The translations under genes were made by a program, and so were the position numbers. A stretch of 64,000 bases of DNA from Actinomycetes bacterium (lineage in GTDB: Bacteria > Actinomycetota > Actinomycetes > Mycobacteriales > Micromonosporaceae). Numbering within the stretch: the stretch's first letter is position 1; every line of letters starts with the position of its first letter. The notes below the pieces were generated by a model. That model was not told where the DNA came from. It did no database searches and worked only from the letters and a program-made list of their open reading frames with translations. Where the stretch lies: NCBI GenBank assembly GCA_023402505.1, contig JAEYGD010000367.1:3870-67869 (forward strand). The letters run 5' to 3'. Shown here in pieces: positions 16,133 through 64,000 of the stretch.

Positions 16133-16242
16133 CCCCCAACCCCCCGCCTCCCCAGTGCGAGGCACCCGCAGCCGCTCCTTCGCGGATCGGCTGTGGACGC
16201 CCCGTGCCCACCTGCCCTGAACACCGTCACGGAAGGAGCATC

Positions 16243-39726: not shown

Positions 39727-40636
39727 GAGCCTTTTTCAAGCTGATCTTGCAGCTCGGGGCGGGTGTGGCAGGCCCGGTGATCGATGGGTGCGAGGCTCCA
39801 GGTAGGGCAGCTGTCGACCAAGACTCGAAGCCCCGACCGGGAGCCTCGCCATGCTGTCCTACCCCGCCACGATTCCGTTGTCCAGCCGCACCCTGAACCA
39901 CCTCGCCGAACGCATCCGCGGCCACCGCAAGCAGCGCCGATCCCGGTGGCGGCGCCTCGATCCCGATCGACAGGCGCTACTGGCTCTCGCCCACCTGCGC
40001 AACGGCGACACCTACACCCGACTCGCTGCCGGCATCGAGATCGGCGTCGCCACCGCCTGGCGCTACGTGCAGGAAGCGATAGCCCTGCTCGCGACAGCCG
40101 CCGACGACCTGGCCACCGCCATGCAACGGATCCGCCGGCTGGCGTACGCGATCCTGGACGGCACCCTGATCCCGATCGACCGGGTCGCCGACCAGCGGCC
40201 CTACTACTCCGGGAGACACAAGCGCCACGGCGTGAACGTACAGGTCATCGCCGATGCCGCTGGCCGGCTCGTCTGGGCTTCCCCGGCGCTGCCCGGTTCG
40301 GTCCATGACCTGACCGCAGCCCGAACCCACTGCATCATCGACGCGCTGACCAACGCAGACGTGCTGACCTTCGCCGATAAGGGCTACCAAGGCGCCCGTG
40401 GCACCGTCTGGACCCCGTTCAAACGCCGCCGCACCCGACTGTCCCGCCGGCAGAAGTCCGTCAACCGGCACCACGCCACGATCCGAGCCCTCGGTGAACG
40501 CGCCGTCTCCACGCTCAAGACGTGGAAGATCCTGACCAAACTACGCTGCTGCCCCCGCCGCGCCACCCCGATCGTCCAGGCCATCCTCGTCCTCCAAGCC
40601 GCCGAGGAAGCCCGCTACCCACGATGAAAATGGCTC
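39727..40636 (+). mobile_element. IS5-family (DDE_Tnp_4 type) insertion sequence, 910 bp
   Basis: Terminal inverted repeats are GAGCCTTTTTCA (39727-) and TGAAAATGGCTC (-40636), 11/12 complementary. ATT flanks both sides (39724-39726 and 40637-40639), suggesting a 3-bp target duplication. Confidence 0.7.
39851..40627 (+). CDS. IS5-family DDE transposase (DDE_Tnp_4 / Harbinger-like)
   Basis: N-terminal HTH ALLALAHLRNGDTYTRLAAGIEIGVATAWRYV. DDE contexts AILDGTLIPI, YSGRHKRHGVNVQV, FADKGYQG and ERAVSTLKTWKIL. Confidence 0.85.
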   Translation: MLSYPATIPLSSRTLNHLAERIRGHRKQRRSRWRRLDPDRQALLALAHLRNGDTYTRLAAGIEIGVATAWRYVQEAIALLATAADDLATAMQRIRRLAYAILDGTLIPIDRVADQRPYYSGRHKRHGVNVQVIADAAGRLVWASPALPGSVHDLTAARTHCIIDALTNADVLTFADKGYQGARGTVWTPFKRRRTRLSRRQKSVNRHHATIRALGERAVSTLKTWKILTKLRCCPRRATPIVQAILVLQAAEEARYPR

Positions 40637-47060: not shown

Positions 47061-48563
47061 TCACTCGCTGCGGCTCGGGCGTCCTGCGTGGCCGGGCTGC
47101 CGACGGGTCCGCTTCCGCGCGATCCCCGGTCGTCGGGGGTAGTCCGGCGGTAGGTACCGGTAGACCGAACGCAGCGACTTGCCGATCCTCTCGGCGAGCA
47201 GTTCAGGGTCCAGGTTCGGCTCTTTGCGCAGCCAATAGGCCACTGCCTCCGCGGTTGTCTGCGGAATCTCCGAGTCCCCGTCGCCCACCTCGTCGTCGGC
47301 GTCATCGCCAGCACTGTCTTTGTCGTCCTCGCTCCCGCCTGCCGGGTTCGCGACGGCCGGTCCGTCCGGCGGCGCAGCGTGGGGCGGACCAGCGCCGCGG
47401 CTGTCGGCAAGCTGCTGATGGCCGTTGTCGTTCGGGGCCGGCTCGGGGTCTCCCTCTGGCTCCGGTTCCGGCTCCTGCCGCTCATCGCCTGGCGTGTCTG
47501 CCGCCAATGCGGTGGGCGCTGGCGAGGAGGAGGCGGGCTCAGGTGCCGGTGGCGCTTCGGCGACGTCTTCTCGTCGGAGCCAGCGACGGCGGCGACGTGC
47601 ACTGTGAGCGGTCATGATTCGCTCTGGGGCGAGGTCTGCGGCCAGGATCGTGGTCAGCCCGTTGTAGTCGGCGGTGGCCGCGAGGCGGGCGGCGATCTCG
47701 TCCAGGTCGTACACCTGCACGGCGATGTCGGCGGTGGTCGAGTCCATCGTGGCTCTGATCTTGCGGTGGAGCACCTTGGCGATCGCGGCGTCGCGGCGTT
47801 GGCGGGCGATCGCGTCGCGGGCCGCGGTCAGGGACTCGTACAGGTCGAGACTGTCGGCCTTGGCGATGGACCGCGCCCGGGCGGTGACGACGGGGTGGCA
47901 GATCCAGTGGGCGAACACCTCGTAGGAGGGGGGTGCGGGTGGCAGGCCCCCGGTGGCGCGCAGCCGGTCGCGGCGCTGGTTGCCGGCGTGCATCAACCAG
48001 ACGAGGTAGCCGAGGGCGGACATGCCCGCGTAGAAGCCGCCGACCAGGGGGTCGGGGTGGGCGGCCCAGTTGAAGGCCACGGCCGCGGCGGCGATCGCGG
48101 CGGACAGGAGGCGGGACACCATGGCCTGTTCGCCGAGCCGGCGTCGCACGTCGGCGTTGGCCATCACGACCACGCCGCCGAGTTCCAGCGCCGCGACGGC
48201 CGGGACCGCGACGAGCACCGGGACGCCCAGCGTTTCGACGGCGCCGGTGACTTGTCCGACGAGGGCGACCAGCAGCACCAGGACGTAGAACGCCTGGCGC
48301 ATCCAGGCGGCGCGCCGGACCGCGGTGGCCAGGTCGGCATCCAGCGCGTCGCGCGTCGTCGGGGACGAGCCATGCCGACGCGCCGACCGGACCTGACGGC
48401 CGCTGCCCGGCGTCGTGCCGGGGGCGAGGACGGTTGCCGGCGGCGGCCACACGGCGCCGTTGCGGCCGTTGTTTGCCGGCTGCGGGACGTCGCCGCCGGG
48501 TGTGGGCTGATCGTGCCGGTTGTCGCGACCCGCTTCGGGCGCCGTCGGAGGGTGCGGCGTCAT
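47061..48563 (-). CDS. DUF2637-like membrane protein with acidic/P-rich tail and C-terminal HTH-like segment
   Basis: ATG at 48563 overlaps the upstream stop (ATGA). Four TM helices (YVLVLLVALVG, VLVAVPAVAALELGGVV, LLSAAIAAAAVAF, FYAGMSALGYLVWL) fit the DUF2637 pattern. Confidence 0.7.
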   Translation of the reverse strand: MTPHPPTAPEAGRDNRHDQPTPGGDVPQPANNGRNGAVWPPPATVLAPGTTPGSGRQVRSARRHGSSPTTRDALDADLATAVRRAAWMRQAFYVLVLLVALVGQVTGAVETLGVPVLVAVPAVAALELGGVVVMANADVRRRLGEQAMVSRLLSAAIAAAAVAFNWAAHPDPLVGGFYAGMSALGYLVWLMHAGNQRRDRLRATGGLPPAPPSYEVFAHWICHPVVTARARSIAKADSLDLYESLTAARDAIARQRRDAAIAKVLHRKIRATMDSTTADIAVQVYDLDEIAARLAATADYNGLTTILAADLAPERIMTAHSARRRRRWLRREDVAEAPPAPEPASSSPAPTALAADTPGDERQEPEPEPEGDPEPAPNDNGHQQLADSRGAGPPHAAPPDGPAVANPAGGSEDDKDSAGDDADDEVGDGDSEIPQTTAEAVAYWLRKEPNLDPELLAERIGKSLRSVYRYLPPDYPRRPGIARKRTRRQPGHAGRPSRSE

Positions 48564-51418
48564 GGGTGTTGCCTGCCGTCTCGGGGATCGGGCTTTCCGG
48601 TCGGGCGTTGCTGTCGCAGGCCGGTGATGAGTCGGTCGGCGAGTTTGATGGTTTCCTTGCTGGGCTCGGCGTCGATCTCGTCGAGCCGGCGGGTGAGTGT
48701 CCGGCGCAGGGTGCGGATCTGCTCGGAGTGTCCCAGTGCGGCGTGGGCGCGCATCGCTTGCTGGTAGAGGGCCTCGGCGTACGGGTCGTGGCGGATCGCG
48801 GCCTCGAGGACGGCCAGGGCTCGTGCCGGGTCGGCGGTCGCGGCGGCGAGAGCGAGGTGGGCGTCGAGGGCTTGGCGGCGGATCCCCTCGCGGTGCGCCT
48901 CGATCCATTCGTAGTCGAAGCCGTCGGCGAGTGCGCCGTCGTATGCGTCGACCGCGCGTTGCAGCGCGGCGGTCCGGTCGGCGTGGGTGGTGGCGCGCTC
49001 GGCGTCGCGCAGCGCGTCGCGCATGCGCCACAGGTCCGTGTCGAGGGCGTCTCGGTTGAGGGAGTAGCGGCGTGACGGGTGGGTGAGGTAGGTGGCGGGC
49101 CCCCCGGTGCGGGCGAGGGCCTTGCGCAGGGCGGACACGTAGGTGTGCAGGCGGTGCGGCGCCTTCGCCGCTGGGGCGTCGGGGAGCAGGTCGTCGAGGA
49201 TGTCGTCCTGTGCGGCGTCGCCGTCGTGGACGACGAGGTAGACCAGCAGTTCGAGGGCTTTCGCCCGCAGCGGCAGGGTCGTGTCCATGTCCAGGATGCG
49301 GGCGCCGCCGAGGACCCGCACCGCGACGCGTCCGCCGGGAGGAGCCGACTGGTTGTTGCCCGCCTGCGGTTCTTCGACGGCCGGATCGCGCGAGTGTGAG
49401 ACGACGAGAGCGGAGTCCGCGGGGGTCGGCTCGTCGTCGGGCAGCGGCGTGTCCGGCTCGCCGTCTTCGGCGTGGTCGACCTCGTCAACAGCGACAGTGC
49501 CGGCTGGGGTCGGTTGTGGGTCCTGGCCGGTGGCAGGGCGGGGGGTTTCGGTCGGTGCGGGGGGCCGGTGCTCGCCGGTGTGCGCTTCGGCGAGTGTGGT
49601 GAGCACACCGATCGTCTCGGCGGGGGTGAGGACGCTCAGGCGGCCGATGTCGGCGGGGTGCGTCCCGTGGCGGGTTTCCCCTGCGGCGGGGGCGGTGGTG
49701 CCGTCGGTGTCGACGACGACGGCGTTCCCGTCTGGCCAGGCGCCGAGCAGGATGCCGTGGATGTCGAGGCGCTGTCCCTGGGCGAGCAGCGTGGCGACGC
49801 GGGCGCGCTCGTGCGCGGCGGTGGCATCGGCGATGAGCACCATCGGCGGCAGGGGCTCGGCCGTCGGGTCGGCGTCCCGCACGCCGGCGACGGTGTCGAC
49901 CTCGTAGTCGAAGCACACCCGGGTGCGACGCAGCGTCTCGTCCTCGAGCATCGCGAGGGCGTCGGTGAGCCCGCCGGTGACGGTCAGCCGCGGCGTGTCC
50001 GGCACGCCTACCGCGGCAGCACCCAGCAGCGCCACCAGGGCGCCCGAGGGGATGACGACCCGGCTGCGCCCGTTCGGCTCGTCCAGGCCGCCGGAGGCGA
50101 GGGCGGACACCAGAAAGCCTCGTGCTGCCGCTTCGGCGCCCGGTCCGGTCAACCCCAGTCCGAAGGGTGGCCACACCGCGATCAGAGGGCTGGCCAGCGC
50201 GGGCGTGACTGGCGCTGGCACCTGCGTGGCCACGATGTCGGACTCGTCGTCAGGTGCTGCGGTGCCGCTGGCGGCCTGGTCCCGTACGGGCAGGAGCGCG
50301 GCTTCGTGGGGGTCCTGGCGGCCGGCGGCGCCGCGCAGGCCACGGTGGATGCGTCCTACGACGCGGGGCATCGGGGCCATGGCCGGGTCGTCGAGGCAGG
50401 GCAGGGCCGAGGGCGCGCGGGGCACGTAGCGGCGCCGCCGGTGAGCCCAGACCAACGCGACCGCGGCGGCGATGGCGCAGGCCAGGCCCTCGTCGACCCA
50501 GCTGCCGCCCGGTAACCCCACGCCGCGGGAGGCATCCTCGCTCGGGCGATGGGCGTCGGCATCGGCCTGACCGGCGGACTGCTGCGCAGGCCTGCTCGGC
50601 GCGGTCGGGCTGTCGACGCCGGCTGCGGATTCCGGGTCGGTCGCCCCCGGGGTGGGTGCTGCGGCCGGACGCGTCGGCGTCGTCTGCCCGCCCGGCCCGG
50701 TGTCGCCGCCCGGCGCGGTGTCGGTGGGCGGGCGGGGCGTGGACGGTGCGGTGACGGCGGGGTCGGTGGGCAGGTGGAGGGTCCAGCCGGGGTAGATCAG
50801 GTCCGGGTCGCGCAGGGTGCCGCCGACGCGGGGGAAGCGGGCGCCGCGGTTGAGGGCGTAGATCTCCGGCCACCGGTCGGCGTCGCCGAGGGTCCGCTCG
50901 GCGATCCGGCACAGGCTGTCCCCGCGGCGCACGGTGTAGGTAGATGCCGCGGGCGCGGCCGGTCGAGCGTCCTGGGCCTCTCGGGATGCTGCCGCCGGGG
51001 TGGGGGTGGCTGTTTCGTCTTTCGTGATCAGGTCGTCGCCTGTGGTGGTGACCGGGGCGGCGTGGGCGGTGGCGCCTGTGGCGGTGGTGACGGCGGTTGC
51101 GCCGAGCAACGCCGCCGTGAGGCTCTGGATCGGGCCGGGAAGGCGAAGCGCGACCGACCAGCGCCACCGGCGTGCCAGTGCGCGGTAGACGTGGGTGAGG
51201 GCGGAGGTGACCAGCAGCAGCCACAGCGCCGCCGCCGCGGCGACGGCGAGGGCGGTGACGAAACCGACGCCCATCGGTTGAGCGATCCACCGGCGGACGG
51301 CGTCCGGTGCGGGCAGCGCCGGCGCCCAGGCGCCGGTGGCCGCGAGAACGGCGGGGACGGCGGCCGTGGACGAGACGCTCGTGGCGATTGCCAACACGCG
51401 TGCGGTTCGGGACGTCAA
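48560..51418 (-). CDS. membrane-anchored LysM + SARP-type (OmpR-wHTH + BTAD) regulator
   Basis: Probable TTG start at 51418, preceded by GGGAGG. N-terminal TM helices. LysM motif YTVRRGDSLCRIAE ... IYPGWTLHLP. A further TM helix, then RVLGGARI ... LELLVYLV (wHTH) and a BTAD (DTDLWRM ... AYDGALADGF ... DPYAEALYQQAMRAHAALG). The track ATG at 51544 lies inside a tandem repeat. Confidence 0.75.
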   Translation of the reverse strand: MTSRTARVLAIATSVSSTAAVPAVLAATGAWAPALPAPDAVRRWIAQPMGVGFVTALAVAAAAALWLLLVTSALTHVYRALARRWRWSVALRLPGPIQSLTAALLGATAVTTATGATAHAAPVTTTGDDLITKDETATPTPAAASREAQDARPAAPAASTYTVRRGDSLCRIAERTLGDADRWPEIYALNRGARFPRVGGTLRDPDLIYPGWTLHLPTDPAVTAPSTPRPPTDTAPGGDTGPGGQTTPTRPAAAPTPGATDPESAAGVDSPTAPSRPAQQSAGQADADAHRPSEDASRGVGLPGGSWVDEGLACAIAAAVALVWAHRRRRYVPRAPSALPCLDDPAMAPMPRVVGRIHRGLRGAAGRQDPHEAALLPVRDQAASGTAAPDDESDIVATQVPAPVTPALASPLIAVWPPFGLGLTGPGAEAAARGFLVSALASGGLDEPNGRSRVVIPSGALVALLGAAAVGVPDTPRLTVTGGLTDALAMLEDETLRRTRVCFDYEVDTVAGVRDADPTAEPLPPMVLIADATAAHERARVATLLAQGQRLDIHGILLGAWPDGNAVVVDTDGTTAPAAGETRHGTHPADIGRLSVLTPAETIGVLTTLAEAHTGEHRPPAPTETPRPATGQDPQPTPAGTVAVDEVDHAEDGEPDTPLPDDEPTPADSALVVSHSRDPAVEEPQAGNNQSAPPGGRVAVRVLGGARILDMDTTLPLRAKALELLVYLVVHDGDAAQDDILDDLLPDAPAAKAPHRLHTYVSALRKALARTGGPATYLTHPSRRYSLNRDALDTDLWRMRDALRDAERATTHADRTAALQRAVDAYDGALADGFDYEWIEAHREGIRRQALDAHLALAAATADPARALAVLEAAIRHDPYAEALYQQAMRAHAALGHSEQIRTLRRTLTRRLDEIDAEPSKETIKLADRLITGLRQQRPTGKPDPRDGRQHP

Positions 51419-51538
51419 CCTGGCCTCCCTCGATCGTCCGGTCCGCAACGCGTGCGCGGCGCGGACGGGCGGCGGTGGACAGTGCCGTGACGCTATGACC
51501 GCCGGCGCGGTCGCGGGGCGAGATGCGGCCTGACAGCA

Positions 51539-51568
51539 CCTCACACGACCTCACACGACCTCACACCC
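51539..51568. repeat. tandem 10-bp repeat (CCTCACACGA x2 plus partial third)
   Basis: Read directly from the sequence. On the minus strand it reads GTGTGAGGTC GTGTGAGGTC GTGTGAGG, about 120 bp upstream of the probable start of the LysM-SARP gene. Confidence 0.85.
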
Positions 51569-51709
51569 CCAGGTCAGTGCCATGACGGGTGTCGGCAGAG
51601 GAGCGGGCGGTCGACGGAGGTGTCGGGGGAGACCCATGCCGCAGGGGAGACGAGCCGTCGCTGGACAGAAGCGGCGACGACGGCGCCCGTAGCCGCCGCC
51701 GACCGGTCG

Positions 51710-53782
51710 CTATCGGCGGGAGGCGGGGGCGTCGCGCATATTCGTGGCGGTCGTGGCCGCGTCTGCGTCCGGGCGCAGGCCTGCCTGCGTGAGGCGGCGG
51801 GCGTAGCCGTCGCGCAGCTCGTGGGCCGCGTCGTGCTCGCCGAGCGCGACGAGGGTGTTCACCGCGCGGGTGGTCAACTCGGCGTTGTAGGGGTCGACGC
51901 GGATCGCGGCCTGCAGCAGCGCGATGGCGCGGTGGGGGTCGGGGGTGGTGTCGGCGAGGGCCACATAGGCGTCGATCACGTGCCGGCGGATGGCTTCGCG
52001 GACAGGGCCGAGCCAGGGCCAGGCGCGCCCGGCGGCGAGGTCGTCAGGGTAGGCGTCGATCACGGCCTGCCAGGCGATGGTGGTGTTGGTGACGGCGGTG
52101 GCCGCGTGTCGAACCGCGTCGTAAAGGCGCCACAGGTCGACGTCGATGTGGGTGGGGTTGAGGCGGTAGCGGTCGTCGGCGTGGTCGATGACGTTCAGCC
52201 CGGACGCGGTTCGGATGACGCCGCGGAGTTCGCTGAGGGTGGTGTACAGCCGGCTGGTGAGGGACTGCCGGGGGACGCCGGGCCACATGGCGTCGATCAA
52301 CGGCCGGGTCTCTGCGCCGTCGGGGTGGGCGGCCAGATACACGAGGACCTGCAGGGCGGCGGTACGCCGGACGGTCACGGCTCGCCCGTCGACGAGCAGA
52401 GCCGGCTCGCCCAGCACGCGCAGTTCCAGCCGTCGGCCGGCAGCGGCGGACCGTGCGCGAGGGCTGCGGCGGGACGGCTGCCGGGGTACTCGCCAACCCG
52501 ATGTCGCCTGGTCGATCGAGGTGACCGGCGTGGCGTCGGGCGGTGTCGGTTCGGGGTGGGCGATCACAGTGAGCAGGTCGGTGGCGGCGATCCGGTCGAG
52601 GACGCACCATCGTGGCCCGGACCAGTCGGGGCGGCGCGGGTCGTGCAGGTGGCCCCCTGGATCGGCCTGCCATGTCGGCCCGGCAGGCCAGCGGCCCAGC
52701 AGGACAACCACGCCGCCGCCCGGCGCCACCGCATCCGCCAGGGCCGCCACGTCGCGCCGGTCGCCGTCGTCGATGAGCAGAACCACTGTCGGGCCACCAC
52801 CGGCGACGGCCGGACCGGCCGGGCGCGGGCCGGAGTCGTCACGCGCCCGGACCGACCGGCCGGCGGATTCCGCAATCCGCGTTGCTTCGTCGATGGTGTC
52901 CACGACGGTCAGCTGCGGCAGGCGCCGCCCAAGGGTCTCCGCGTGGGGGCCGAGGAGTCTGGTCAGGGCTGCCCTCGTGGTGACCAGTGACACCGCCGGC
53001 TGACGTTGCCCGGCCAGCAGCACGGTGACCAGAAGGCCCCGTCCGACGGCCAGAGCGCCCGGCCCGGTGATCCCCACACCGGTGGCCGGGAGGACGTCCC
53101 TGAGGGCGGGTATGCCCGCCGGGGAGGCCGGAGCAGCAACCGGGGCGGGCGCGTCGGCGAGGGCGGCCTGCACGGCGGCGACAGTCGGGGGCAGCGGGGC
53201 CAGATCGGGATCCTCGCGCGCGGACTGTCGGGGCGGGTGAGGCCGGTAGGCGCGGCGGCGGCGCAGCCATACCAGGGCCGCGGCGGCGGCGACGTGCTCG
53301 GCGACGTCACGGGGCAGCCATCCCGCCGGGACGGTGATCCCGTCGTCCGCCGACACACCTGCGTCACGGGTCGTGGGGTCGTCGAGGGTTCCCGCCGTCG
53401 CCGGCTGCGGTGGTTGTGGCGGCGCCGCGGCGACCGCGTTGGTCGTGACGCCGAGGACGGCGGCGCCCGCCATCCCGCTGGCGGTCGCCTGCAGCGGTGT
53501 GGGCAGCGGCAGGCGCCGCAACCAGCGTGCCGTGGCGCGGACGCGGGTGAGGACCCGGACCGTGACCGTGTAGGCGAGCACCAGCCACAGCAGCCAGGCC
53601 GCGACGGTCAGCGCGGCGGTGAGGGTCTGCTCGGTCAGCGGCTGCCGCACCCACTCCCGCATCTGCTCCCCGGACGGCCGCCCACCCATCGGCGGGCCGA
53701 CCAGGGACAGCAGCACCAGTGGCGGCCCGGCCAGGAGCGCGAGGACGACCAGCAGCGACATCAGCTGCCTCGGCCACCGCAC
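51710..53782 (-). CDS. membrane-anchored SARP-type (wHTH + BTAD) regulator, paralog of 48560-51418 without LysM
   Basis: The TM layout matches its paralog. C-terminal LRVLGEPALLVDGRAV ... LQVLVYLAAHP ... DVDLWRL ... DPYNAELTTRAVNTLVALG. The start is either the GTG at 53782 or the ATG at 53761. The track start at 53896 would overlap the upstream gene by 112 nt. Confidence 0.7.
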   Translation of the reverse strand: MRWPRQLMSLLVVLALLAGPPLVLLSLVGPPMGGRPSGEQMREWVRQPLTEQTLTAALTVAAWLLWLVLAYTVTVRVLTRVRATARWLRRLPLPTPLQATASGMAGAAVLGVTTNAVAAAPPQPPQPATAGTLDDPTTRDAGVSADDGITVPAGWLPRDVAEHVAAAAALVWLRRRRAYRPHPPRQSAREDPDLAPLPPTVAAVQAALADAPAPVAAPASPAGIPALRDVLPATGVGITGPGALAVGRGLLVTVLLAGQRQPAVSLVTTRAALTRLLGPHAETLGRRLPQLTVVDTIDEATRIAESAGRSVRARDDSGPRPAGPAVAGGGPTVVLLIDDGDRRDVAALADAVAPGGGVVVLLGRWPAGPTWQADPGGHLHDPRRPDWSGPRWCVLDRIAATDLLTVIAHPEPTPPDATPVTSIDQATSGWRVPRQPSRRSPRARSAAAGRRLELRVLGEPALLVDGRAVTVRRTAALQVLVYLAAHPDGAETRPLIDAMWPGVPRQSLTSRLYTTLSELRGVIRTASGLNVIDHADDRYRLNPTHIDVDLWRLYDAVRHAATAVTNTTIAWQAVIDAYPDDLAAGRAWPWLGPVREAIRRHVIDAYVALADTTPDPHRAIALLQAAIRVDPYNAELTTRAVNTLVALGEHDAAHELRDGYARRLTQAGLRPDADAATTATNMRDAPASRR

Positions 53783-53784
53783 TC

Positions 53785-55701
53785 CTACCCACCTCCACCC
53801 GGCGGCATGCCGGCCGGCAGCATCACCGAGGTCTGTCCGGCGGGCGTGGGTGGAGCGGGGCGGATGACGCGGGTCCACAACCGGGACGCCCACCACACCG
53901 CGACAGCGACGGCGTAGGTGACGCCGAGGATGCCGGCGGCCTGGTCATTGACGATCGCCGCGGTGATCACCGCAAGGGGAGCGGCGAGGATGAGACGGAA
54001 CACCAGCGGCGTGACCAACGCCATGACCACCCCGACACCCAGCAGCAGCCCACCGAGCCGACCCGCGATGTCGATCCACAGCACCATGTCAGGCCACCGT
54101 TCGGCGGTCAGCGAGTACTGGACCAACCCCATGCCGATCGCGGCCGTCACGACCGAGCCGGTCGGGGCGGCCAGCAGCGCCGACCAGCCGCCGTGCGGGA
54201 CCCGCCACTGCCGGGCGGCCACCACCGCCATCGCCACCGCCATCACGGCGATCGGGCTGATCGGCCACAACGCCCAACTCAGAAACCGGCCCACCGGCTG
54301 GCCGAAATACTGGCTGTACACCACCGCGTACAGGCCGGCGATCGCCGTGCCGAGGGACACCGCCGCGAGGATGCCGACGCTGACCTTCCCACCCTCGGTG
54401 CGCATGTTCGGGGTGGGGCTGCGGGCCGCGATCAGCGAGCCGAGCACAGTGCCGGCCGCGAGGCACGCCATCAGCGCCATCACGGCGGCCATCGCGAACT
54501 CGCCCCAGTTCAGGTCCACCCAGTAGTGCACGTTGAGCGTGTTGTGCCGCTCCGCGGTCAGCAGGCACTGCCACGACAGCGCCAACGAGGCGAAACCCGG
54601 CACCGCGATCGCGACGGCCCGCCGCACCGGCGGCACCGGCACCTCCACCCGATCCTCGGCGCCTAGGTCGACCGCACCGGCGTCCGCAGCGCCCAGAGCA
54701 GCCGCGAACCGAGGCTCGGCAACGATCGTGGGACTGACACCCACGTGCTCGACGACCAGCACGCCCAACTGAGGCAGGTGTGCGCCGCCGCCGACGCAGT
54801 AGACACCAGCAATGTCGGCGGCCGTCAGCTCCGCGGCGGCGATCGCCTCCTGGATCAGCTGCGCGACCCGCTCCAGGACGGGGCGGGCGACCTCGTCGAG
54901 CATCCCGCTGTTCGCGACGACCGGCGCCTGGCCGGCCAGCGGCACCGTGACGACCGGATGGGCGGTCAAGGACTCCTTCGCGGTACGAACGCTCTCCGCC
55001 ACCACCCACCGCTCCGCCTCATCGCCGGGCATCCCCTCACCGCCGGTGAAAGCGACGGCCAAGGCTTGGTCGATGGCCTGGCCGCCGGCCCTCGAGTCGT
55101 CGAGGGTCGCCAGCACCTCGAAACCCGCCGGCCCTCGGCGCAGCACCGTCACCTCGGCGCCCGCGCCCACGTCGACAACGACGATGAACGCCCCGACCGG
55201 TAGCTGCAGACCGGTGGCCAGCAGGCGCCCGGCGACCGCCACCGGGGCCTCCACCAGACGCGGCTGCGGCAACCCCGCCCGGTGAGCGACCTGCCGCATC
55301 CAGGTACGCCGCCTCGGCCCCCAGCCCGCCGGCACCACCACCCGCACATCCCGCACTGGGCCACCGGCCACCCGCTGCGCCTCGACCGCGGCCCTGCGCA
55401 GCGGCGCCGCCGCCAACTCCAGCGCCTCCACCGCGACGCCCTCAACGGTGAGATCGTCATCGGCCGGACGGCGAGGACTCGGCACGAGCCGGGTCGGCTC
55501 CCTCGCGGCAGCCTGGCGCGCCTGCTGCCCCGTCCACACCTCACCATCAGCGGCCACATAGACAGCACTGGGCAACTCCACCAGGCCGTCGAACGACAAC
55601 GGGACCGAGCTGCCATCAGGCCAAGCGAGGACCGCCTTGGTGGTGGCCGTGCCGCAATCAATCGACAGCCGCGCCTCCCCCGCCCGCATACGCATAGTCA
55701 A
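53785..55701 (-). CDS. Hsp70/actin-fold ATPase-like protein with C-terminal polytopic membrane domain
   Basis: N-terminal LSIDCGTATTKAVLAW (phosphate-1 DxGT), VVVDVGAGAEVTVL (phosphate-2) and VYCVGGGAHLP (adenosine motif), followed by at least 6 hydrophobic helices. Confidence 0.75.
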   Translation of the reverse strand: MTMRMRAGEARLSIDCGTATTKAVLAWPDGSSVPLSFDGLVELPSAVYVAADGEVWTGQQARQAAAREPTRLVPSPRRPADDDLTVEGVAVEALELAAAPLRRAAVEAQRVAGGPVRDVRVVVPAGWGPRRRTWMRQVAHRAGLPQPRLVEAPVAVAGRLLATGLQLPVGAFIVVVDVGAGAEVTVLRRGPAGFEVLATLDDSRAGGQAIDQALAVAFTGGEGMPGDEAERWVVAESVRTAKESLTAHPVVTVPLAGQAPVVANSGMLDEVARPVLERVAQLIQEAIAAAELTAADIAGVYCVGGGAHLPQLGVLVVEHVGVSPTIVAEPRFAAALGAADAGAVDLGAEDRVEVPVPPVRRAVAIAVPGFASLALSWQCLLTAERHNTLNVHYWVDLNWGEFAMAAVMALMACLAAGTVLGSLIAARSPTPNMRTEGGKVSVGILAAVSLGTAIAGLYAVVYSQYFGQPVGRFLSWALWPISPIAVMAVAMAVVAARQWRVPHGGWSALLAAPTGSVVTAAIGMGLVQYSLTAERWPDMVLWIDIAGRLGGLLLGVGVVMALVTPLVFRLILAAPLAVITAAIVNDQAAGILGVTYAVAVAVWWASRLWTRVIRPAPPTPAGQTSVMLPAGMPPGGGG

Positions 55702-56008
55702 ACATGAGGATCACACTCACGTCACCCACCGATCACTCACGGAGAGTAGAGACCGCGGGCCGAAAGCCAGATGAGCCAGTCCGAAGTCGCGCCCCTGGCA
55801 CCGTGCTGCAGGTCTATGTGTGGGCGGGCGTGGGAAGCGGTGCCCGGCCTCGGGGGAAGCTCGGTGGCGACTGAACCGAGCCATGCGACGCGACGAGGAC
55901 CCCTGCACTCGTGGCAGCCCTGCCCAGAGCATGCAACCCCCGCCGGGCTCCACCACGAGCCGCCCGCACGATAAGCGGACAGTCGCTGATGTCCGCCGCG
56001 GGAACCTA

Positions 56009-57232
56009 GTGCCGCAGCAGGGAATGTTTGCCCTGTGACGACGCGGCGTGCGGGTGCTGGTTCGGACGGTGCGGTGTCGCCAGGCTGTCCGGGTGGCAGA
56101 GCGGGTACGGGTCCGGGATATCGGCGACGACGAAGGGCAGCGGCTGCGGCGGATCGTCCGTAGAGGTACTGGGTCGGTGGTGACCTGGCGGCGGGCTCAG
56201 ATGGTGTTGCTGTCCGCGCAGGGCATGTCGGTGGGGAAGATCGCGGAGGTGACGTTCACCAGCGCGGATCGGGTCCGAGACGTGATCGGCAATTTCAACG
56301 CCGACGGCTTCGATTCGCTTTACCCGAAGTACAAAGGTGGCCGGCCGAGAACGTTCACGCTGCCGGAGCGGCGTGAGATTAAGAAGATCGCGAAGTCCAA
56401 GCCGGCCGAGCATGGCTTGCCGCTCTCGACCTGGAGTCTGGCCAAGCTGGCCGACTTCCTGGTCGCTGAGGGGGTGGTCGACGACATCAGCCACGAGGGC
56501 CTGCGGGTCCTGCTCCGCGAGGAGGGCGTGTCGTTTCAACGCGTGAAACCTGGAAGATCTCCCGCGACCCGGACTACGCCGCCAAGAAGGCCCGGGTCGA
56601 GCACCTCTACGCGATCGCCGACGGTGAGGTCGTACCGGAGGACGACGAGCCCGAGGTCGTGTTCTGCCTCGACGAGTTCGGTCCCTTGAATCTCCAACCT
56701 CATCCGGGGCGGCAGTGGGCCGAGCGCGGTGGACGGCACAAGGACCCTGACCGGCAGCCGCGGCCCCGCCGGCGGGCGACCTACACCCGACCGCATGGGA
56801 TCAGGCACCTGTTCACCGCCTACGACCTGAGCAAGGACAAGCTCTACGGCCACATCAAGCCGACGAAGACCCGCACACGGTTCCTGGAGTTCTGCCGCTA
56901 CCTGCGCAGCCTGCACCCGCCGCAGACCCGGATCGCGATCGTGCTCGACAACTACTCCCCACACCTGAGCACGAAGAAGGACACCCGGGTCGGCGACTGG
57001 GCCGCGGCCAACAACGTCGAGCTCGCCTACACACCCACCAACAGCTCCTGGCTCAACCGCATCGAGGCCCAGTTCACCGCCCTGCGCTACTTCACCCTCG
57101 ACGGCACCGACCACACCAGCCACAAGCAACAGGCCAGCATGATCCGCCGCTACATCATCTGGCGGAACAAAACGCCGCCGACGAATGCCTACGCGAGGTA
57201 GTCAACAGGGCGAACATTGCCTGATGCGGCAC
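56009..57232 (+). mobile_element. IS630-family insertion sequence, 1224 bp
   Basis: Inverted repeats are GTGCCGCAGCAGGGAATGTTTGCCCTG (56009-) and CAGGGCGAACATTGCCTGATGCGGCAC (-57232). A TA dinucleotide flanks both sides (56007-56008 and 57233-57234). Confidence 0.85.
56048..57201 (+). CDS. IS630-family transposase, split into two frames at AAA (56546-56548)
   Basis: Frame 1 ends ...GVSFQRVK. Frame -1 continues TWKISRDPDYAAKKARVEHLY ... DEFGPLNLQP ... VLDNYSPH ... NSSWLNRIEAQF (DDE). This is either a -1 slip or a 1-nt deletion in an A run. Confidence 0.8.
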
Positions 57233-57305
57233 TAGTTCATCCGGCCCGTCAACGGCCGCATCCCGGCCGAGATTGACGGGAACGCCCGGGCGCGCCGGCG
57301 TCGTC

Positions 57306-58210: not shown

Positions 58211-58732
58211 TTACTCCGGCTCCGGGAGCAGCCCTTGCTCACGCAACTGGGCGAAGTGCGCCTCGGGTGGTGGCTCCGGGTCGTGATCGGAGGGCCGTGG
58301 TGGTTCGGGTCCGTCGCGGTCGAAGCGCAACAGCGTCTCGACCCGGGTGACCCGGAATCGGCGGTCGAGTACCGTCACCTCGTTCGCTCGGGTTGCCTCG
58401 ACCTCGTCGGCGGCCTGCGCGTACGCGGCGATCTCCGCGTCGGTGGGCTGCCCGATGCGGGGAACCATATAGCGGAACTTGAAGGCGATCGCCTCCCTCG
58501 CCTGTTGTGGGGAAGCGAGGTGGCGGCTCGCCGGCCGCCACTGACCCTCGACGCACTCGGCCACCGCGTACCCGGCGGGCAGGACCACGCCGCGAGGATG
58601 GACGCGTAGGGCCATGCGGCTGTCGGCGTGAACGTCGGCGGGAACCCCCGCCGCGGGATAGTGCGCGGACAGCAAATCCACCGTCACCATCGCCTGCACC
58701 GGCCCGACCGGCACACCGGGGTCCACCACCAC
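58211..58732 (-). CDS. hypothetical protein, probably 5'-truncated
   Basis: The frame stays open for 71 more codons, up to 58945, with no ATG/GTG/TTG. The upstream extension repeats the C-terminal motif: RWRVVRADTFTRFGPDGPESPRPSDPD versus RFRVTRVETLLRFDRDGPEPPRPSDHD. Confidence 0.5.
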   Translation of the reverse strand: MVVDPGVPVGPVQAMVTVDLLSAHYPAAGVPADVHADSRMALRVHPRGVVLPAGYAVAECVEGQWRPASRHLASPQQAREAIAFKFRYMVPRIGQPTDAEIAAYAQAADEVEATRANEVTVLDRRFRVTRVETLLRFDRDGPEPPRPSDHDPEPPPEAHFAQLREQGLLPEPE

Positions 58733-59098
58733 ACCTTCCCGACCGGAGTAGAGGCCGGCGGCACCGGCTGCGCCACTGTCGGGGTCGCTCGGGCGTGGAG
58801 ACTCCGGCCCGTCTGGACCGAACCGGGTGAACGTATCCGCCCGGACGACCCGCCACCGGCGCCAACGGCCCTGGGCGAGGCGCGCACGCAGTTCGAGCCA
58901 GGCTGAACGCTGCTTGGCTGTGCGTTCGCTGGGTTTGGCGAACTCTCAGGCCCTTCGACCGGCGCAGCGCGGCTCACATAGACGAGTCCGACGATCACCA
59001 GTCGCCATGCCCCAAACGGCGGGTCGCCGCTGGGCTCGTCGGCCAGAAGAGCGACGGAGGGCTGGACATGATCAGTTCGCTTCGAAACACTACGCCTT

Positions 59099-60286
59099 GT
59101 GTCGCCGTCGTCGCACAACGCCGCGCCATCTGCGCTGGGCTACCTGTACCAGTCGCAGTGGCCGTTGCTAGAGCTGCTGCGGCGTTCCGAGGAACGGCCA
59201 GACTGCGCCATCACCCTGGAGCTGCACGACGACGTCGCCTGGGAGCAGGAGGGCACACCTACTGAGTTGTTACAGCTGAAGCATCATCTGCGTGCCGGCC
59301 GCGGGCTGGGTGACAAGGACGTCGACATCTGGCGCACGATCCGAGCATGGATGGACACCCAGGACGTCGGTGACCCGGAGGGGCCGGCGCTAACCATGGT
59401 GACGACGCAGACGGCGGGGCCACATAGCGCAGCAGCGGCGTTACGGCCCCTGGGACGAGACGTCAAGCGTGCGCTGGCCCTGCTTGAGGCGGCAGCGGCG
59501 GATTCGACCGCAGAGGTGAGCGTTGGCTGGCGTCGCCAGTTCCTGGACCTTGACCCGGCGGTGCGGGCGACTTTCGTCGCCCGCATCTACTTGCTGGACG
59601 CCGCACCCGTGATCGGCGATTTGGACGGCGCGGTGCGTCGAGTCCTGCGCTGGGCGCTGCCGCGCGGGCACGAGGACACGTTCATGGGGTTGCTGTGGTC
59701 GTGGTGGCACTCCAAGGTCGTCGACCTGCTACAGGGTCGCCGGCGGCACGTCAACGCAGTCGAGGTGGCGGTCAAGATCGATGAGCTGCGCGATCAATTC
59801 ACCCGCGACAACCTACCGACGCTGGTGCAGCCGGAGCACTTCGATCCGGCGGAGGAGGCTGCCTACCTGGACCGGTGCTTCGTGCAGCAACTGCGGTGGG
59901 TCGGCACGCCGGCGCGGCTAATCCAAAAGGCGATCATCGACTATTACCGCGCGTATGTGCAGACGGCCCGGTGGATTGATGACGACCTCATCGGCCTGGA
60001 TGAGTTGGAGGCGTTCGAGGCGCGGCTGCGCGACGAGTGGGAACGCGAGTACGAGTGGATGGTGGCCGAGCTGCCTGCCGACGCCGATGAGGATGCCAAA
60101 CAGCGGGCCGGGATGCGGCTGCTGCGCGAAACCCTCGACCGCACCGGCATCCGGGTCCGTGACCGCTACGACGAGGCGTTCTTTTGCCGCGGCAAGCACC
60201 ACGAGCTCGCCGACACCGGCCGGGTGGGCTGGCATCCCGAGTTCGCCGGTCGGATCGAGGCGTTGCTGCTGGCGGCCAGCCAATGA
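59099..60286 (+). CDS. ABC-3C-type effector: N-terminal restriction-endonuclease-fold (Cap4/DUF4297-like) nuclease + helical C-terminal domain
   Basis: ALGYLYQSQWPLLELL (GYxYQ motif) and ITLELHDDVAWE...ELLQLKHH (D...QxK). The C-terminal 200 aa are helical (YYRAYVQTARWIDDDL...). GTG start with no strong RBS. Confidence 0.65.
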   Translation: MSPSSHNAAPSALGYLYQSQWPLLELLRRSEERPDCAITLELHDDVAWEQEGTPTELLQLKHHLRAGRGLGDKDVDIWRTIRAWMDTQDVGDPEGPALTMVTTQTAGPHSAAAALRPLGRDVKRALALLEAAAADSTAEVSVGWRRQFLDLDPAVRATFVARIYLLDAAPVIGDLDGAVRRVLRWALPRGHEDTFMGLLWSWWHSKVVDLLQGRRRHVNAVEVAVKIDELRDQFTRDNLPTLVQPEHFDPAEEAAYLDRCFVQQLRWVGTPARLIQKAIIDYYRAYVQTARWIDDDLIGLDELEAFEARLRDEWEREYEWMVAELPADADEDAKQRAGMRLLRETLDRTGIRVRDRYDEAFFCRGKHHELADTGRVGWHPEFAGRIEALLLAASQ

Positions 60287-60753
60287 CGGCCTGGCAAGAC
60301 CGACCGCAGGTGTCTGCGGCGTACCTCAACCCGGCGATGGTGGCGACCGTGCTGGCCGCTGCTGCCGCTGGCTATCGAGCCGGACGGCAGCGGACCATGA
60401 TCTGGCCGTTGGCGTTCGTCGTCGCACCCCTGGTGCTGCACCGCAGCACCCGTCAGGCGTTGCCCCGCAGCACTGCAACGCATCTTGCGTCCTGGGTGTC
60501 CCGCAATGCTCTGTTGCACGCCGGCTTCGCCCCACGGGCTCGGGCGCTGGCGCCGACAGTCCGAGAAGGGCTGCGGTTCGGGCTGCGACACGGCGTATTG
60601 ACCGTCGAGGCTGGCGGGCTCAGCGGGGCGGTCGGGAGAGGACGCGATCCCGAGCTTCAGCAGCTGCTGCGCAGCGCACAACTGGTGGGACGATGGCTGG
60701 CCAAGGCCGACCAGCCTGCCACCGCCTTCGCGATTCTCGGTGTGGAGCCCTGA
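60283..60753 (+). CDS. ABC-3C-type middle component (small helical protein)
   Basis: ATGA overlap with the effector gene. 156 aa. It sits between the effector and the DUF3732-type ATPase. Confidence 0.6.
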   Translation: MTAWQDRPQVSAAYLNPAMVATVLAAAAAGYRAGRQRTMIWPLAFVVAPLVLHRSTRQALPRSTATHLASWVSRNALLHAGFAPRARALAPTVREGLRFGLRHGVLTVEAGGLSGAVGRGRDPELQQLLRSAQLVGRWLAKADQPATAFAILGVEP

Positions 60754-60757
60754 CGAC

Positions 60758-62710
60758 ATGAACCTGCTGGCAATCGTGCTGTACAACCGGGCTGGTGACC
60801 GACGCGTGGTCGACTTCCGACCCGGTGAGCTGAACATCGTCACCGGCTGGTCGGCCACCGGCAAGAGCGCCCTGCTCGACATCACCGAGTTCTGCTTGGG
60901 GCGCGACACGGTGACCATGCCAGTCGGGCCGATCACCAACACCGTGTCGTGGTACGCCGTGCTGGTCCAGCTGCCCACCACCCGCGCGTTCGTCGCCCGC
61001 CCCGCGCCACGGACCGGTCGCGCTTCCACCCAACAGGCGATGCTGGAGTTCGGCGCGGATCTACAGCCGTTGGACTACGCCGACCTGGTCGTCAACGTTG
61101 ACTCCGACACCGTCCGCCAACAACTCGGTCGGCTGATCGGCATCGGCGAGAACCTGCATCTCCCCGAGCCCGGAGCCCTACGTGCCCCGCTGGAGGCCCA
61201 CCTGGGCCACGCCCTGCTGTTGTGCCTGCAACGCCAAGGCGAGATCGGCAACCGCGACCTGCTGTTTCACCGCCAAGGCGAACGTGGGATCCAGCAGGCA
61301 ATCATCGACACGCTGCCGTATTTCCTGGGGGCTGTGCCGGGTGACCAAGCCGCCAGGCGGCAGCAGTTGCAGGCCGCTCGCCGCCAGCTTCGCCGTCTCG
61401 AGACCGACCTGGCCGCAGCCGAGAGACTCAACAGCGACGTGGAGGTCGAGCTTCGGGCCCTGCTGACCGAAGCCCACGCCAAGGGACTCATTGTCAACGC
61501 CGATATCGACGGCCGAGATGCCGCCGTGGCAGCCCTGGCGCAAGCCCTCGTCACCCCGACCGTTGAACCGTCCACCGAAGACAGCAACGACACCCGACGG
61601 CGGGAACTCGAGCAGCGCCGCGACAACCTGCGCCAGCAGTTGCGGGCCATCGGCGAGCAACGCGCCCTGCTGGATGACCAGGTCCGCGGCGAGCGCGATT
61701 ACCAGACAGCCGTCCGCGTCGGCGCCGGCCGACTGCAAAGCCTGGAGCTGGTGCAGCCCAATGATCACATCGGCGCGGACACCTGCCCGATGTGCGGCAA
61801 CGTCCTAGCCGAACCCGATCCCCAGCTCAGCGAATTGCAGCAGACCGTCGATGATCTTCGAAGCCAGCTCCGCGCCGTCGAGACAGCCCGGCCGCGCCGT
61901 GTGGCTGCCCTCGGCGAACTCGACCGCCGCGCCGACGGCATCCGGCAAGAGCTACGCAGCGTCGACGCCGCCCTAGCCGGTATCCGCGCCGCTGACGCCG
62001 CCGTCGATGCGGCCCGCAGCCGAGGAGAAGACCGAGCGTTCACCAAGGGACGCATCGACCTGTATCTGACCCGCCTACGCCAAGCCGGAGACGAAGACAC
62101 CCTAAACGCTTTACGCACCCGCGTCGAAATAGTCCGCCGCAACGTCGACCGGCTGGCCGCCGATCTCGACCCCGACGAAGAACGCGAGCAGCTCACCTCA
62201 CGACTGCTCGTCGTCGGCGCGGACATGACCCGCTGGGCGGACCGACTTGAACTCGAACACCGTGGCGGCAACATCCGCCTCGACCTGCACCGCCTCACCG
62301 TCGTCATCGACACCGACAGCGGCCCGGCCCCCCTGTTTCGCATTGGCAGCGCCGAGAACTGGATCGGCTATCACCTCATCGCCCACCTCGCGCTGCACCG
62401 CTACTTTGTTCGCCAGCGCCGACCAGTGCCCCACCTGCTCATGCTCGACCAGCCCACCCAGGCGTACTACCCATCCGAGGTCGAACAGCACCGCGGCGTC
62501 CCCCGCGATGACGACGACCGTGCCGCAGTACGCCGACTGTTCGAACTCATGCGAGACGTCGCCACCGAACTGGCCCCCGACATGCAGATCATCGTGTGCG
62601 ACCACGCCGACCTGCCCGAACCCTGGTTCCAGCAAGCCGTTCGCCACAACTGGCGCGGCGCCGCACTGATCCCCAACGACTGGATCAGCGGAACGCCCAC
62701 CGCTGACTAA
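60758..62710 (+). CDS. SMC/Rad50-like ABC ATPase, DUF3732-type
   Basis: N-terminal FRPGELNIVTGWSATGKSALLDITEFCLG (Walker A). A long Q/R/E/L-rich coiled coil with a central CPMCG. C-terminal LLMLDQPTQAYYP (Walker B) and IIVCDHAD. Confidence 0.75.
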   Translation: MNLLAIVLYNRAGDRRVVDFRPGELNIVTGWSATGKSALLDITEFCLGRDTVTMPVGPITNTVSWYAVLVQLPTTRAFVARPAPRTGRASTQQAMLEFGADLQPLDYADLVVNVDSDTVRQQLGRLIGIGENLHLPEPGALRAPLEAHLGHALLLCLQRQGEIGNRDLLFHRQGERGIQQAIIDTLPYFLGAVPGDQAARRQQLQAARRQLRRLETDLAAAERLNSDVEVELRALLTEAHAKGLIVNADIDGRDAAVAALAQALVTPTVEPSTEDSNDTRRRELEQRRDNLRQQLRAIGEQRALLDDQVRGERDYQTAVRVGAGRLQSLELVQPNDHIGADTCPMCGNVLAEPDPQLSELQQTVDDLRSQLRAVETARPRRVAALGELDRRADGIRQELRSVDAALAGIRAADAAVDAARSRGEDRAFTKGRIDLYLTRLRQAGDEDTLNALRTRVEIVRRNVDRLAADLDPDEEREQLTSRLLVVGADMTRWADRLELEHRGGNIRLDLHRLTVVIDTDSGPAPLFRIGSAENWIGYHLIAHLALHRYFVRQRRPVPHLLMLDQPTQAYYPSEVEQHRGVPRDDDDRAAVRRLFELMRDVATELAPDMQIIVCDHADLPEPWFQQAVRHNWRGAALIPNDWISGTPTAD

Positions 62711-62959
62711 ACCCTGCGGCGCTGCGACAGGGGCCACCACCCGACGCGCCCGCCACCCACGTCGGCGACCACTCATGCACAGCCTCGAATGGCATGCACA
62801 AGTAGCCGCGAGCAGCGCGGTTGCAGTCGAACGGGTCTGGGTCCTGCTGGGCGTTCTCGGGAGCCCGCTCATCATGAGCAGGCTCCCCGGAGCGCAGCCC
62901 GACTCGAACGGTGCTGAGGTGCGCACACCTGTGTGTCCTGCCTTGACCCGTCGGATCCC

Positions 62960-64000
62960 CTAGCCACGCCGGTGGTCGGATGGACCCGGGGCCTCCTGGC
63001 TAACGATGACGGGGCCTTCCGCGATGGCGGCTGGCGCTACCAGCACCCGCCCGCGTGAGGTGTCGGGCATACCGGCCTGGAGGGCAGGGCTTCCCAGGTA
63101 GCGGTAGGCAAATTCGCCGGGCGGCAGGTCCAAAGTGACGGTGACACCGCCTTGGGTACCCTGGTTCAAGTCGGTGCCATTCGAGAGGCGACACCGCCGG
63201 ATGTAGATGATGCTGGGGCCAAGGTCCAGTTTCCGTCCGGCGATCCGAATGATCGTGCGCGGCAGAGCCTGCATGAGCTGGAATTCTCCATTGAACTGGT
63301 GATCAATCCGGTCTGGATTGTCTGGGAAGAAGGTAAAGGTGACATTTTGGGCGGCGATCGGCACGTGCTCGCCAGCGACAAGACGCGCTGCCCGATGAAT
63401 CGTCTCAGCGTCTTGGCGGGTCAGGCTTGGCGGTACCGCGAAGGACGAGCGGGTGTGGTCCTGGATTTCAACTAGGCCCTCGATCAGATCCAACACCTGC
63501 TGCGGCACGGCGTCGCTCAGAGATTCGACGATCGCAGTGTCTACGAGAGGATTGCTGTCGGCGTGCAGGTCGAGCCGGAGGAGGTTCGGTGGTCGGAAGG
63601 CAGCGAGCAGCCGGAGAAGGGGCAGCGCCGCTGAGGGGCTGCCGAGCGGGCGCTCCACCACCGACACCACGATCTGTCCGACCTGCTGTAGGGGGTTCAA
63701 GCGCAGTTGAAGTCTGAGTATGCCGAGAGCGTCGGAGCCCTTCAACGTGATGCCGCTCTGTCCCCGCAGTCGCTCGGTAAAGGCGATCTCGAGACCTTGT
63801 TGAGGCATGCCGGCTGGCGTCAGCACCGTCAACGTGGCCAGCAGCGGAGGATCGATATGCTCTGGCACCGACTGGATGAACAGGCGGCTGACCTGTTCGG
63901 TCCGCGCGATCCCCAGCTCAGCAGGCGCGTCTACCGTGAGCGGTCCGACGAACTGCCCGGAAAGATCCAAATCGCCGCCGTAGGCAAATGCATCCTCGAC
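62960..64000 (-). CDS. hypothetical protein, 5' end outside window
   Basis: The frame is open to the window edge; the track start at 63970 is a TTG. The region has lower GC. I recognise no motif. Confidence 0.55.
   Translation of the reverse strand, partial: VEDAFAYGGDLDLSGQFVGPLTVDAPAELGIARTEQVSRLFIQSVPEHIDPPLLATLTVLTPAGMPQQGLEIAFTERLRGQSGITLKGSDALGILRLQLRLNPLQQVGQIVVSVVERPLGSPSAALPLLRLLAAFRPPNLLRLDLHADSNPLVDTAIVESLSDAVPQQVLDLIEGLVEIQDHTRSSFAVPPSLTRQDAETIHRAARLVAGEHVPIAAQNVTFTFFPDNPDRIDHQFNGEFQLMQALPRTIIRIAGRKLDLGPSIIYIRRCRLSNGTDLNQGTQGGVTVTLDLPPGEFAYRYLGSPALQAGMPDTSRGRVLVAPAAIAEGPVIVSQEAPGPSDHRRG

Follow-up and report, generated by a model that had tools for sequence, protein, structure and literature searches.

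The Lamassu superfamily takes in Lamassu types I and II, the ABC-three-component (ABC-3C) systems and DdmABC (PMC10586767). The DdmABC system of Vibrio cholerae and the LmuACB system of Salmonella enterica have been grouped as the "Lamassu Cap4-CTD7-MC3 sub-family" (Li et al., bioRxiv 10.1101/2025.03.14.643221), for which phage and plasmid assays, catalytic mutants and cryo-electron microscopy of the sequestered, DNA-bound and active-tetramer states have been published (PMC12663957; bioRxiv 10.1101/2025.03.14.643221). Described here is a three-gene locus that very probably belongs to this sub-family, found in a 64,000-nucleotide stretch of DNA from an Actinomycetes bacterium of the family Micromonosporaceae (GenBank assembly GCA_023402505.1, contig JAEYGD010000367.1, positions 3,870 to 67,869 of the forward strand). 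That whole stretch is called the window below, and positions refer to it unless another record is named. A first-pass annotation, made by a model that saw only the letters and a list of open reading frames (ORFs), had taken the three genes for an ABC-3C-like conflict system, a classification which the profile searches reported below bear out; its further statement that such systems are essentially untested by experiment is wrong, given the assays, mutants and structures just cited.

In the solved homologues, a monomeric LmuA is bound by its C-terminal domain (CTD) within a LmuA1-LmuB2-LmuC1 complex, at the apex of the folded LmuB coiled coil, and is thus sequestered. The LmuB heads, together with LmuC, bind the ends of double-stranded DNA (dsDNA) in vitro and gather at a phage replication origin in vivo, and both ATP binding and slow hydrolysis are needed. 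Once freed, LmuA forms a CTD7-mediated tetramer with two Cap4 domains per active site; the DNA that it cuts is left with 3' overhangs of 1 nt, and the infection aborts (PMC12663957; bioRxiv 10.1101/2025.03.14.643221). Short-type LmuB proteins are recognized by a Walker A motif of the form Gx4GK[S/T], a Walker B of the form hhhhD[Q/S/T/E] and a length of about 600-650 amino acids (aa), and the CxxC zinc hook is variable among them, with 0, 1 or 2 copies present (PMC12663957).

The lmuA-lmuC-lmuB operon

The six-frame ORF list of the window contains three co-directional ORFs on the forward strand, coding for 395 aa (from a GTG start), 156 aa and 650 aa (Table 1). It is very likely that they make up an intact short-type (type II) Lamassu operon, lmuA-lmuC-lmuB, of the Cap4-CTD7-MC3 sub-family, and that it acts as its solved homologues do; they are identified as Lamassu because the Pfam, PADLOC and solved-chain matches for all three subunits agree with one another and with a Foldseek search on LmuA. 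In the raw sequence, lmuA and lmuC share an ATGA overlap at 60283-60286, by which lmuC is predicted to be translationally coupled to lmuA. The lmuC-lmuB junction reads TGA-CGAC-ATG (60751-60760), the 4-nt gap CGAC occupying 60754-60757, and a GGAG stands 9 nt 5' of the lmuB ATG (60758). This tight coupling had been read correctly at first pass, as had the 156-aa length of the second product. The gene starts are supported by the homologues, which begin at the same residues.

Table 1. Features of the Lamassu locus and its immediate borders (positions in the window)
Feature	Position	Strand	Basis and remarks
DUF5954 gene, 5'-truncated, abutting the left junction	58211-58945	-	Pfam DUF5954
Left end of shared block, about 36 nt of the 3' remnant of a vsr-like gene	58945-58981	+	blastn; translated match
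Leader 5' of lmuA, conserved, non-coding	58982-59098	+	conserved with M. globbae
lmuA, effector	59099-60286	+	395 aa; Cap4/DUF4297-type PD-(D/E)xK head and CTD7 tail, predicted by PADLOC, Pfam, profile and Foldseek
LmuA active-site codons (putative)	59228-59281	+	D44-D45 at 59228-59233; Q59-x-K61 at 59273-59281
LmuA CTD7 domain, aa 261-383	59879-60247	+	Pfam PF20283
lmuC, MC3-type middle component	60283-60753	+	156 aa; Pfam MC3, PADLOC LmuC
lmuB, short Rad50/SMC-like ABC ATPase	60758-62710	+	650 aa; PADLOC LmuB, Pfam DUF3732
LmuB Walker A GWSATGKS, aa 30-37, lysine K36	60845-60868	+	alignment; Gx4GK[S/T] pattern
LmuB putative zinc-hook motif CPMC, aa 343-346, coiled-coil apex	61784-61795	+	orthologue alignment
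LmuB C-terminal head half (DUF3732/LmuB_C), aa 465-637	62150-62668	+	Pfam; carries IGSAENW, Walker B and DHA
LmuB Walker B LLMLDQ, aa 560-565	62435-62452	+	orthologue alignment
Right end of shared block, 10 nt beyond the lmuB stop	62711-62720	+	blastn identity stops at 62720; alignment decays after

The PADLOC model for LmuA matches the product of the first gene at E = 2.7e-56, and the Pfam domain "CTD7 of ABC-3C" is found in its tail at E = 9.3e-42, over profile positions 1-123 of 126; this region can also be aligned with the C-terminal domain of LmuA in both the S. enterica and the V. cholerae structures. The N-terminal head carries the motifs G14-Y-L-Y-Q18, D44-D45 and Q59-L-K61, all invariant across 35 homologues, as is H63. 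When 35 LmuA sequences were made into a profile, it aligned with V. cholerae LmuA from end to end (E = 5.7e-22), K61 falling on V. cholerae K57, the position at which the K57A mutant chain 9ny1 departs from wild type; this lysine is essential in V. cholerae (PMC12663957). The single LmuA sequence matches that of S. enterica at E = 6.5e-12, in two segments. In the AlphaFold2 model (predicted local distance difference test score, pLDDT, 84) nearly everything from about residue 111 on is helix. When this model was compared with the Protein Data Bank (PDB) by Foldseek, the top 16 matches were solved LmuA chains, followed by CBASS (cyclic-oligonucleotide-based anti-phage signalling system) Cap4, Avs3, Hachiman and DUF4297-HerA nucleases. 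The predicted Cap4 nuclease head, though sub-threshold in Pfam, can thereby be taken as confirmed by profile and fold comparison, and a precomputed PF14130 match is present in many members of the LmuA clade. All that had been noted at first pass for this protein -- the GYxYQ motif, the D...QxK signature, the Cap4/DUF4297-type head and the long helical tail -- has held up.

LmuC is matched by the Pfam family "MC3 of ABC-3C" over its full length (E = 1.3e-32) and by the PADLOC LmuC model (E = 5e-6), and a profile built from 17 LmuC orthologues matches the solved chains 9hqu_D (8e-7) and 9ny5_C (1e-5). A search of NCBIfam gave no model for either LmuA or LmuC.

LmuB matches the PADLOC LmuB model at E = 1.9e-123 and Pfam DUF3732, named LmuB_C in newer Pfam releases, at 4e-48. 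It aligns end to end with the solved chains of S. enterica (9hqu_A, 1.2e-50) and V. cholerae (9ny5_D, 5.7e-47), and its 650 aa, Walker A and glutamine-variant Walker B are those of a short-type Lamassu ATPase as defined above. Walker A, CxxC, an IGSAxNW signature-like motif, the Walker B hhhhDQ and the histidine loop DHA (aa 615-617) are all kept in 16 orthologues, in agreement with the Walker A, CPMC and LLMLDQ reported at first pass. The CPMC aligns with the CPMCG of S. enterica LmuB and is a putative zinc hook at the apex of the coiled coil; at this column CxxC is present in 16/16 orthologues and CPxC in 15. The coiled coil between the two head halves is predicted to be about 270-280 aa long (roughly aa 190-465), rather than the 350 or so estimated at first, because the NCBIfam match covers aa 201-472 and that to DUF3732 aa 465-637. 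LmuB is presumed to be the DNA sensor.

Predicted mode of action

Every motif which the mechanism of the homologues requires is present in the three proteins of the window. All of the following steps are carried over from the solved homologues, the complex and the tetramer being those of 9hqu, 9ny5, 9hr5 and 9nxx. Two LmuB protomers, linked at the CPMC zinc hook, would fold back with one LmuC, and this LmuB2-LmuC1 assembly would grip a single LmuA by its CTD7 tail (an A1B2C1 complex), keeping the nuclease monomeric and inactive. On the DNA of a phage or plasmid, the LmuB heads and LmuC would then recognize ends, or structures associated with replication (hairpins, palindromes or phage origins, for example), and slow ATP turnover by the head with the glutamine-variant Walker B would help to release LmuA. 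Freed LmuA would tetramerize through CTD7, bringing two Cap4 domains together into one active site (D44/D45, Q59 and K61), and the tetramer would cut dsDNA non-specifically. The infected cell would die or stop growing, and the spread of the phage or plasmid would be blocked, as in abortive infection.

Relatives and selection

Related loci were collected from species-representative genomes of Actinomycetota and Acidobacteriota. The A-C-B triad is found in 16 of these 21 loci, the others being contig-end fragments or broken copies, and the same order is seen in Micromonospora globbae, M. vinacea, Amycolatopsis, Streptomyces, one metagenome locus and one Streptomyces plasmid. The closest relative is that of M. 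globbae, with LmuA 96% identical and the DNA block 93% identical; in RefSeq/GenBank it already bears an ABC-three component system annotation. Judging by this LmuA match and by a neighbouring protein 62% identical to one of M. zhanjiangensis, the window is probably part of a Micromonospora genome. Orthologues carry the labels "ABC-three component system protein", "three component ABC system middle component" and "DUF3732 domain-containing protein", given by the Prokaryotic Genome Annotation Pipeline (PGAP). Between the window and M. globbae, the ratio of non-synonymous to synonymous substitution rates (dN/dS) is 0.10 for lmuA, 0.09 for lmuC and 0.16 for lmuB, values that indicate purifying selection on all three genes. 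Since, in addition, the gene lengths are identical, the operon looks functional.

The flanks of the triad differ in every genome examined. In M. globbae (locus L022) the block is embedded in a defence island: it is preceded by genes for an Eco29kI-type restriction enzyme and a C5 DNA methyltransferase and by vsr (6205-9888), and followed by a gene for an 802-aa AAA_21/SMC_N ATPase (13940-16348). In M. vinacea (locus L025, 5786-9602), a second, divergent Lamassu-like triad stands back to back with the orthologous operon and encodes a 415-aa protein with a weak Cap4_nuclease match, a 206-aa protein and a 655-aa AAA_23 ATPase. In the Amycolatopsis locus a serine recombinase is found upstream of the triad, and in Streptomyces sp. 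MOE7, some 48 kb into the chromosome record, the triad is surrounded by an insertion sequence (IS) element, a UvrD helicase and a STAND NTPase. Together with the linear Streptomyces plasmids discussed below, these loci show the triad in varied settings, rich in genes of defence or of mobile elements. In the window itself, a PADLOC scan detected no other defence system adjoining the triad.

The shared block and its junctions

When the whole window was compared with the M. globbae locus by blastn, only 58945-62720 matched, at 93% identity, with unrelated sequence on both sides. At the left end of this block, the remnant reads RPFDRRSAAH in translation and corresponds to the C-terminal end of Vsr in M. 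globbae, QALDRRNAVHS*, and vsr is the upstream neighbour of the block in M. globbae. On the other side of the junction, the open frame at 58214-58945 (reverse strand) covers DUF5954 profile positions 99-297 of 297 (E = 1.6e-68), so about 98 N-terminal positions are gone, and the junction holds a stop codon. The meeting of two truncated genes, DUF5954 and vsr, marks 58945 as a rearrangement scar. No direct or inverted repeats that would convincingly bracket 58945 and 62720 came out of a repeat search, in which the terminal repeats of the IS630 element described below were the only clean ones.

At first pass, 58946-59098 had been taken for a 5'-truncated gene at a junction. The junction is real, at 58945; the region itself consists of about 36 nt of the vsr 3' end followed by a non-coding leader, and the clearly 5'-truncated gene is DUF5954, to the left. 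The suggestion of recent acquisition as a cassette fared better: that the operon lies on a 3.8-kb horizontally moved block is supported by the limits of the block, the vsr remnant and the truncated DUF5954 gene.

Altogether 154 nt of upstream leader have moved along with the genes and are 93% conserved. The last 45 nt or so before the lmuA GTG (59054-59098; CTGGACATGrTC...TTCGAnAnACTnCG) are conserved in M. vinacea too, where the block overall is about 70% identical, and the GTG is not preceded by a Shine-Dalgarno sequence. This stretch could be a promoter giving a leaderless or short-leader transcript.

Alternative explanations

Several observations weigh against an operon that works in the way set out above. 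A literature search found no experiment on this locus or on any actinobacterial Lamassu. The identity of LmuA to solved LmuA chains is low, 15-24% by Foldseek, and its Pfam Cap4_nuclease score of 19.3 bits is under the gathering cut-off of 26.2 bits, so that the nuclease assignment rests on profile and fold comparison; the LmuC sequence by itself had no significant match in the PDB (E = 0.29). A scan for sigma-70 consensus promoters gave 0 sites, and for that reason a promoter role of the leader is only inferred. A terminator scan gave only terminator-like sites inside lmuB, on the wrong strand and at chance level. Finally, the block is flanked by truncated genes, and its expression in the new context is not guaranteed.

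The last of these points lead to the reading of the triad as a decaying relic, moved by the rearrangement that truncated its neighbours and no longer expressed or functional. Besides the two truncated genes at the left junction and the lack of a recognizable promoter or terminator in the consensus scans, it can draw on the IS630 element 1.7 kb away and on the absence from the window of the restriction-modification and ATPase neighbours seen in M. globbae. Against this are the three intact frames of unchanged length with dN/dS of 0.09-0.16, the intact catalytic motifs, and the conserved leader which was transferred together with the genes, and we consider a relic unlikely. Hardly any weight can be given to the idea that the third gene is a housekeeping repair ATPase (SbcC/Rad50, RecN or RecF) with unrelated neighbours. 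LmuB does have the Rad50-like plan of ATP-binding cassette (ABC) head, coiled coil and CxxC hook, SbcCD has been proposed as the evolutionary ancestor of Lamassu (PMC12663957), and weak NCBIfam matches to an archaeal SMC-related protein and to Rad50 were obtained; these, however, score far under their cut-offs (38 bits where 300 are required and 12 where 1000 are, respectively), while the specific Lamassu models match at 1e-123 and 4e-48. No SbcD/Mre11 (metallophosphatase) partner adjoins the triad in the window, and the gene always travels with lmuA and lmuC. The housekeeping orthology in conserved synteny that the first-pass annotation had named as fatal to its proposal was not found; lmuB has no conserved synteny, since its flanks differ among all the genomes examined.

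That the first gene might instead be the effector of another Cap4/DUF4297 system, CBASS Cap4 or DUF4297-HerA, is suggested by Foldseek, which also returned structures of both (6vm5 and 6vm6 at E of about 1e-3, and 8zir at about 3e-2). These matches are at least 10 orders of magnitude weaker than those to LmuA; moreover, the C-terminal half of the protein is CTD7 and not SAVED, the genes coupled to it are lmuC and lmuB and not a CD-NTase cyclase or a HerA ATPase, and among the flanking ORFs scanned there was no match to a cyclase or HerA family. Such an effector is accordingly a most improbable candidate, and the Lamassu operon remains the preferred reading. A Wadjet system was also considered and rejected, the PADLOC JetC match being negligible (E = 0.044).

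Triads on linear plasmids

On several large linear plasmids of Streptomyces (plasmid matches H3-H7), a homologous triad stands about 6-13 kb from an end; in the linear plasmid of Streptomyces sp. NBC_01230 (L033) the triad is at 9415-13037. The hosts of such plasmids thus have to put up with DNA ends of their own although they carry a sensor for ends and hairpins. Given that relatives of the system sense DNA ends, this near-end position is curious. The linear-plasmid triads also adjoin IS21 and Fic toxin genes. One speculation, for which we see only a slim chance, is that the actinobacterial Cap4-CTD7-MC3 clade is tuned to a different trigger than the proteobacterial systems, possibly the terminal-protein-capped, palindrome-rich telomeres of linear actinomycete plasmids and phages. 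If this were true, the clade would show how a sensor of DNA ends tells the cell's own linear replicons from foreign ones.

Surroundings in the window

The GC content, 72-78% at 50-55.5 kb, drops to 66-70% in the island and reaches 62-64% where the window ends. A complete IS630-family element of 1230 bp lies at 56006-57235, with 31-nt terminal inverted repeats which are 90% complementary and start with CTAG. Its transposase is split over two overlapping frames, 56048-56689 with the helix-turn-helix domains and 56659-57201 with DDE_3, either by programmed frameshifting or by a frameshift mutation. A DDE_Tnp_4 transposase gene is located at 39851-40627. The description of the locus, at first pass, as sitting among IS elements is true only in part, given these two and a right side that leaves the window.

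Further to the left, at 48560-55701 on the reverse strand, is a run of three large genes, for a 994-aa protein with a BTAD domain at its C-terminus, a 728-aa tetratricopeptide repeat (TPR) protein and an Hsp70-like ATPase of 638 aa. In the ATPase, the C-terminal half looks strongly hydrophobic and may span the membrane.

To the right, and convergent with lmuB, an ORF at 62960-64000 (reverse strand) runs past the window end; it encodes the C-terminal 335 aa of a 576-aa protein, P0121, with 100% identity. A search of a collection of 5.8 billion proteins gave only 5 homologues of P0121, one of which has been named "Restriction endonuclease" by one source. No Pfam domain was found in P0121. In its N-terminal part, which the window does not include, there are a D...ExK-like motif (GGRDVQV...IYELKSF) and a weak match to the PADLOC model PDC-M58A (6.5e-5); the gene is possibly a rare defence gene of the nuclease type. 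The homologue in M. zhanjiangensis is 62% identical and lies between two tyrosine-recombinase genes. The family was tried as a fourth Lamassu component and rejected, tblastn against 28 loci giving no match; the M. zhanjiangensis locus is likewise without Lamassu genes, according to its Pfam listing. The metagenome contig L031 (7883-11659) carries a full DUF5954 gene (50% identical) and, 1.1 kb away and divergent from it, a P0121 homologue (61% identical). The DUF5954 and P0121 families may have been neighbours before the Lamassu block and the rearrangement intervened.

Implications for annotation

The appropriate label for the locus is Lamassu (type II, Cap4-CTD7-MC3; DdmABC-like), an anti-phage/anti-plasmid system of a kind which PADLOC models already detect. 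Beyond annotation it matters little, the sub-family being already well characterized. The cleanly bounded 3.8-kb block (58945-62720), 93% identical between M. globbae and the probable Micromonospora genome of the window and set in unrelated contexts, illustrates the movement of such operons. The mechanism has so far been shown in proteobacterial systems only, and an actinobacterial member shown to work in this way would extend it.

Comparison with known systems

The S. enterica LmuACB system (PDB 9hqu, 9hqx, 9hr5; bioRxiv 10.1101/2025.03.14.643221) shares with the locus described here the A-C-B gene order, the Cap4 head with CTD7, and the MC3 middle component, and its LmuB, like that of the window, has about 650-660 aa, a single CPMCG-type hook and a glutamine Walker B. 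It differs in that the sequences are distant and the host is a proteobacterium and not a high-GC actinomycete. V. cholerae DdmABC (equivalent to LmuA/LmuC/LmuB, Lamassu Vc-Cap4; PDB 9nxx, 9ny1, 9ny5, 9nyg, 9uxh-l; PMC12663957) is of the same sub-family and has the same operon, and the Walker A and Walker B variants of its LmuB are those of the window LmuB. The V. cholerae LmuB, however, is without a zinc hook, whereas the window protein has CPMC, and CxxC is kept throughout its clade.

ABC-3C (Pfam CTD1-12, MC1-8 and DUF3732) is an older name for Lamassu/DdmABC, and nothing in it differs from the window system. The window LmuB is built on the plan of SbcCD/Rad50-Mre11, with an ABC head, a coiled coil and a CxxC zinc hook, and SbcCD/Rad50-Mre11 is, like Lamassu, a sensor of DNA ends and palindromes. 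The coiled coil of the window LmuB is much shorter, though, and there is neither an Mre11/SbcD partner nor conserved synteny; and while the Lamassu effector is released, the nuclease of SbcCD/Rad50-Mre11 is instead positioned on the DNA.

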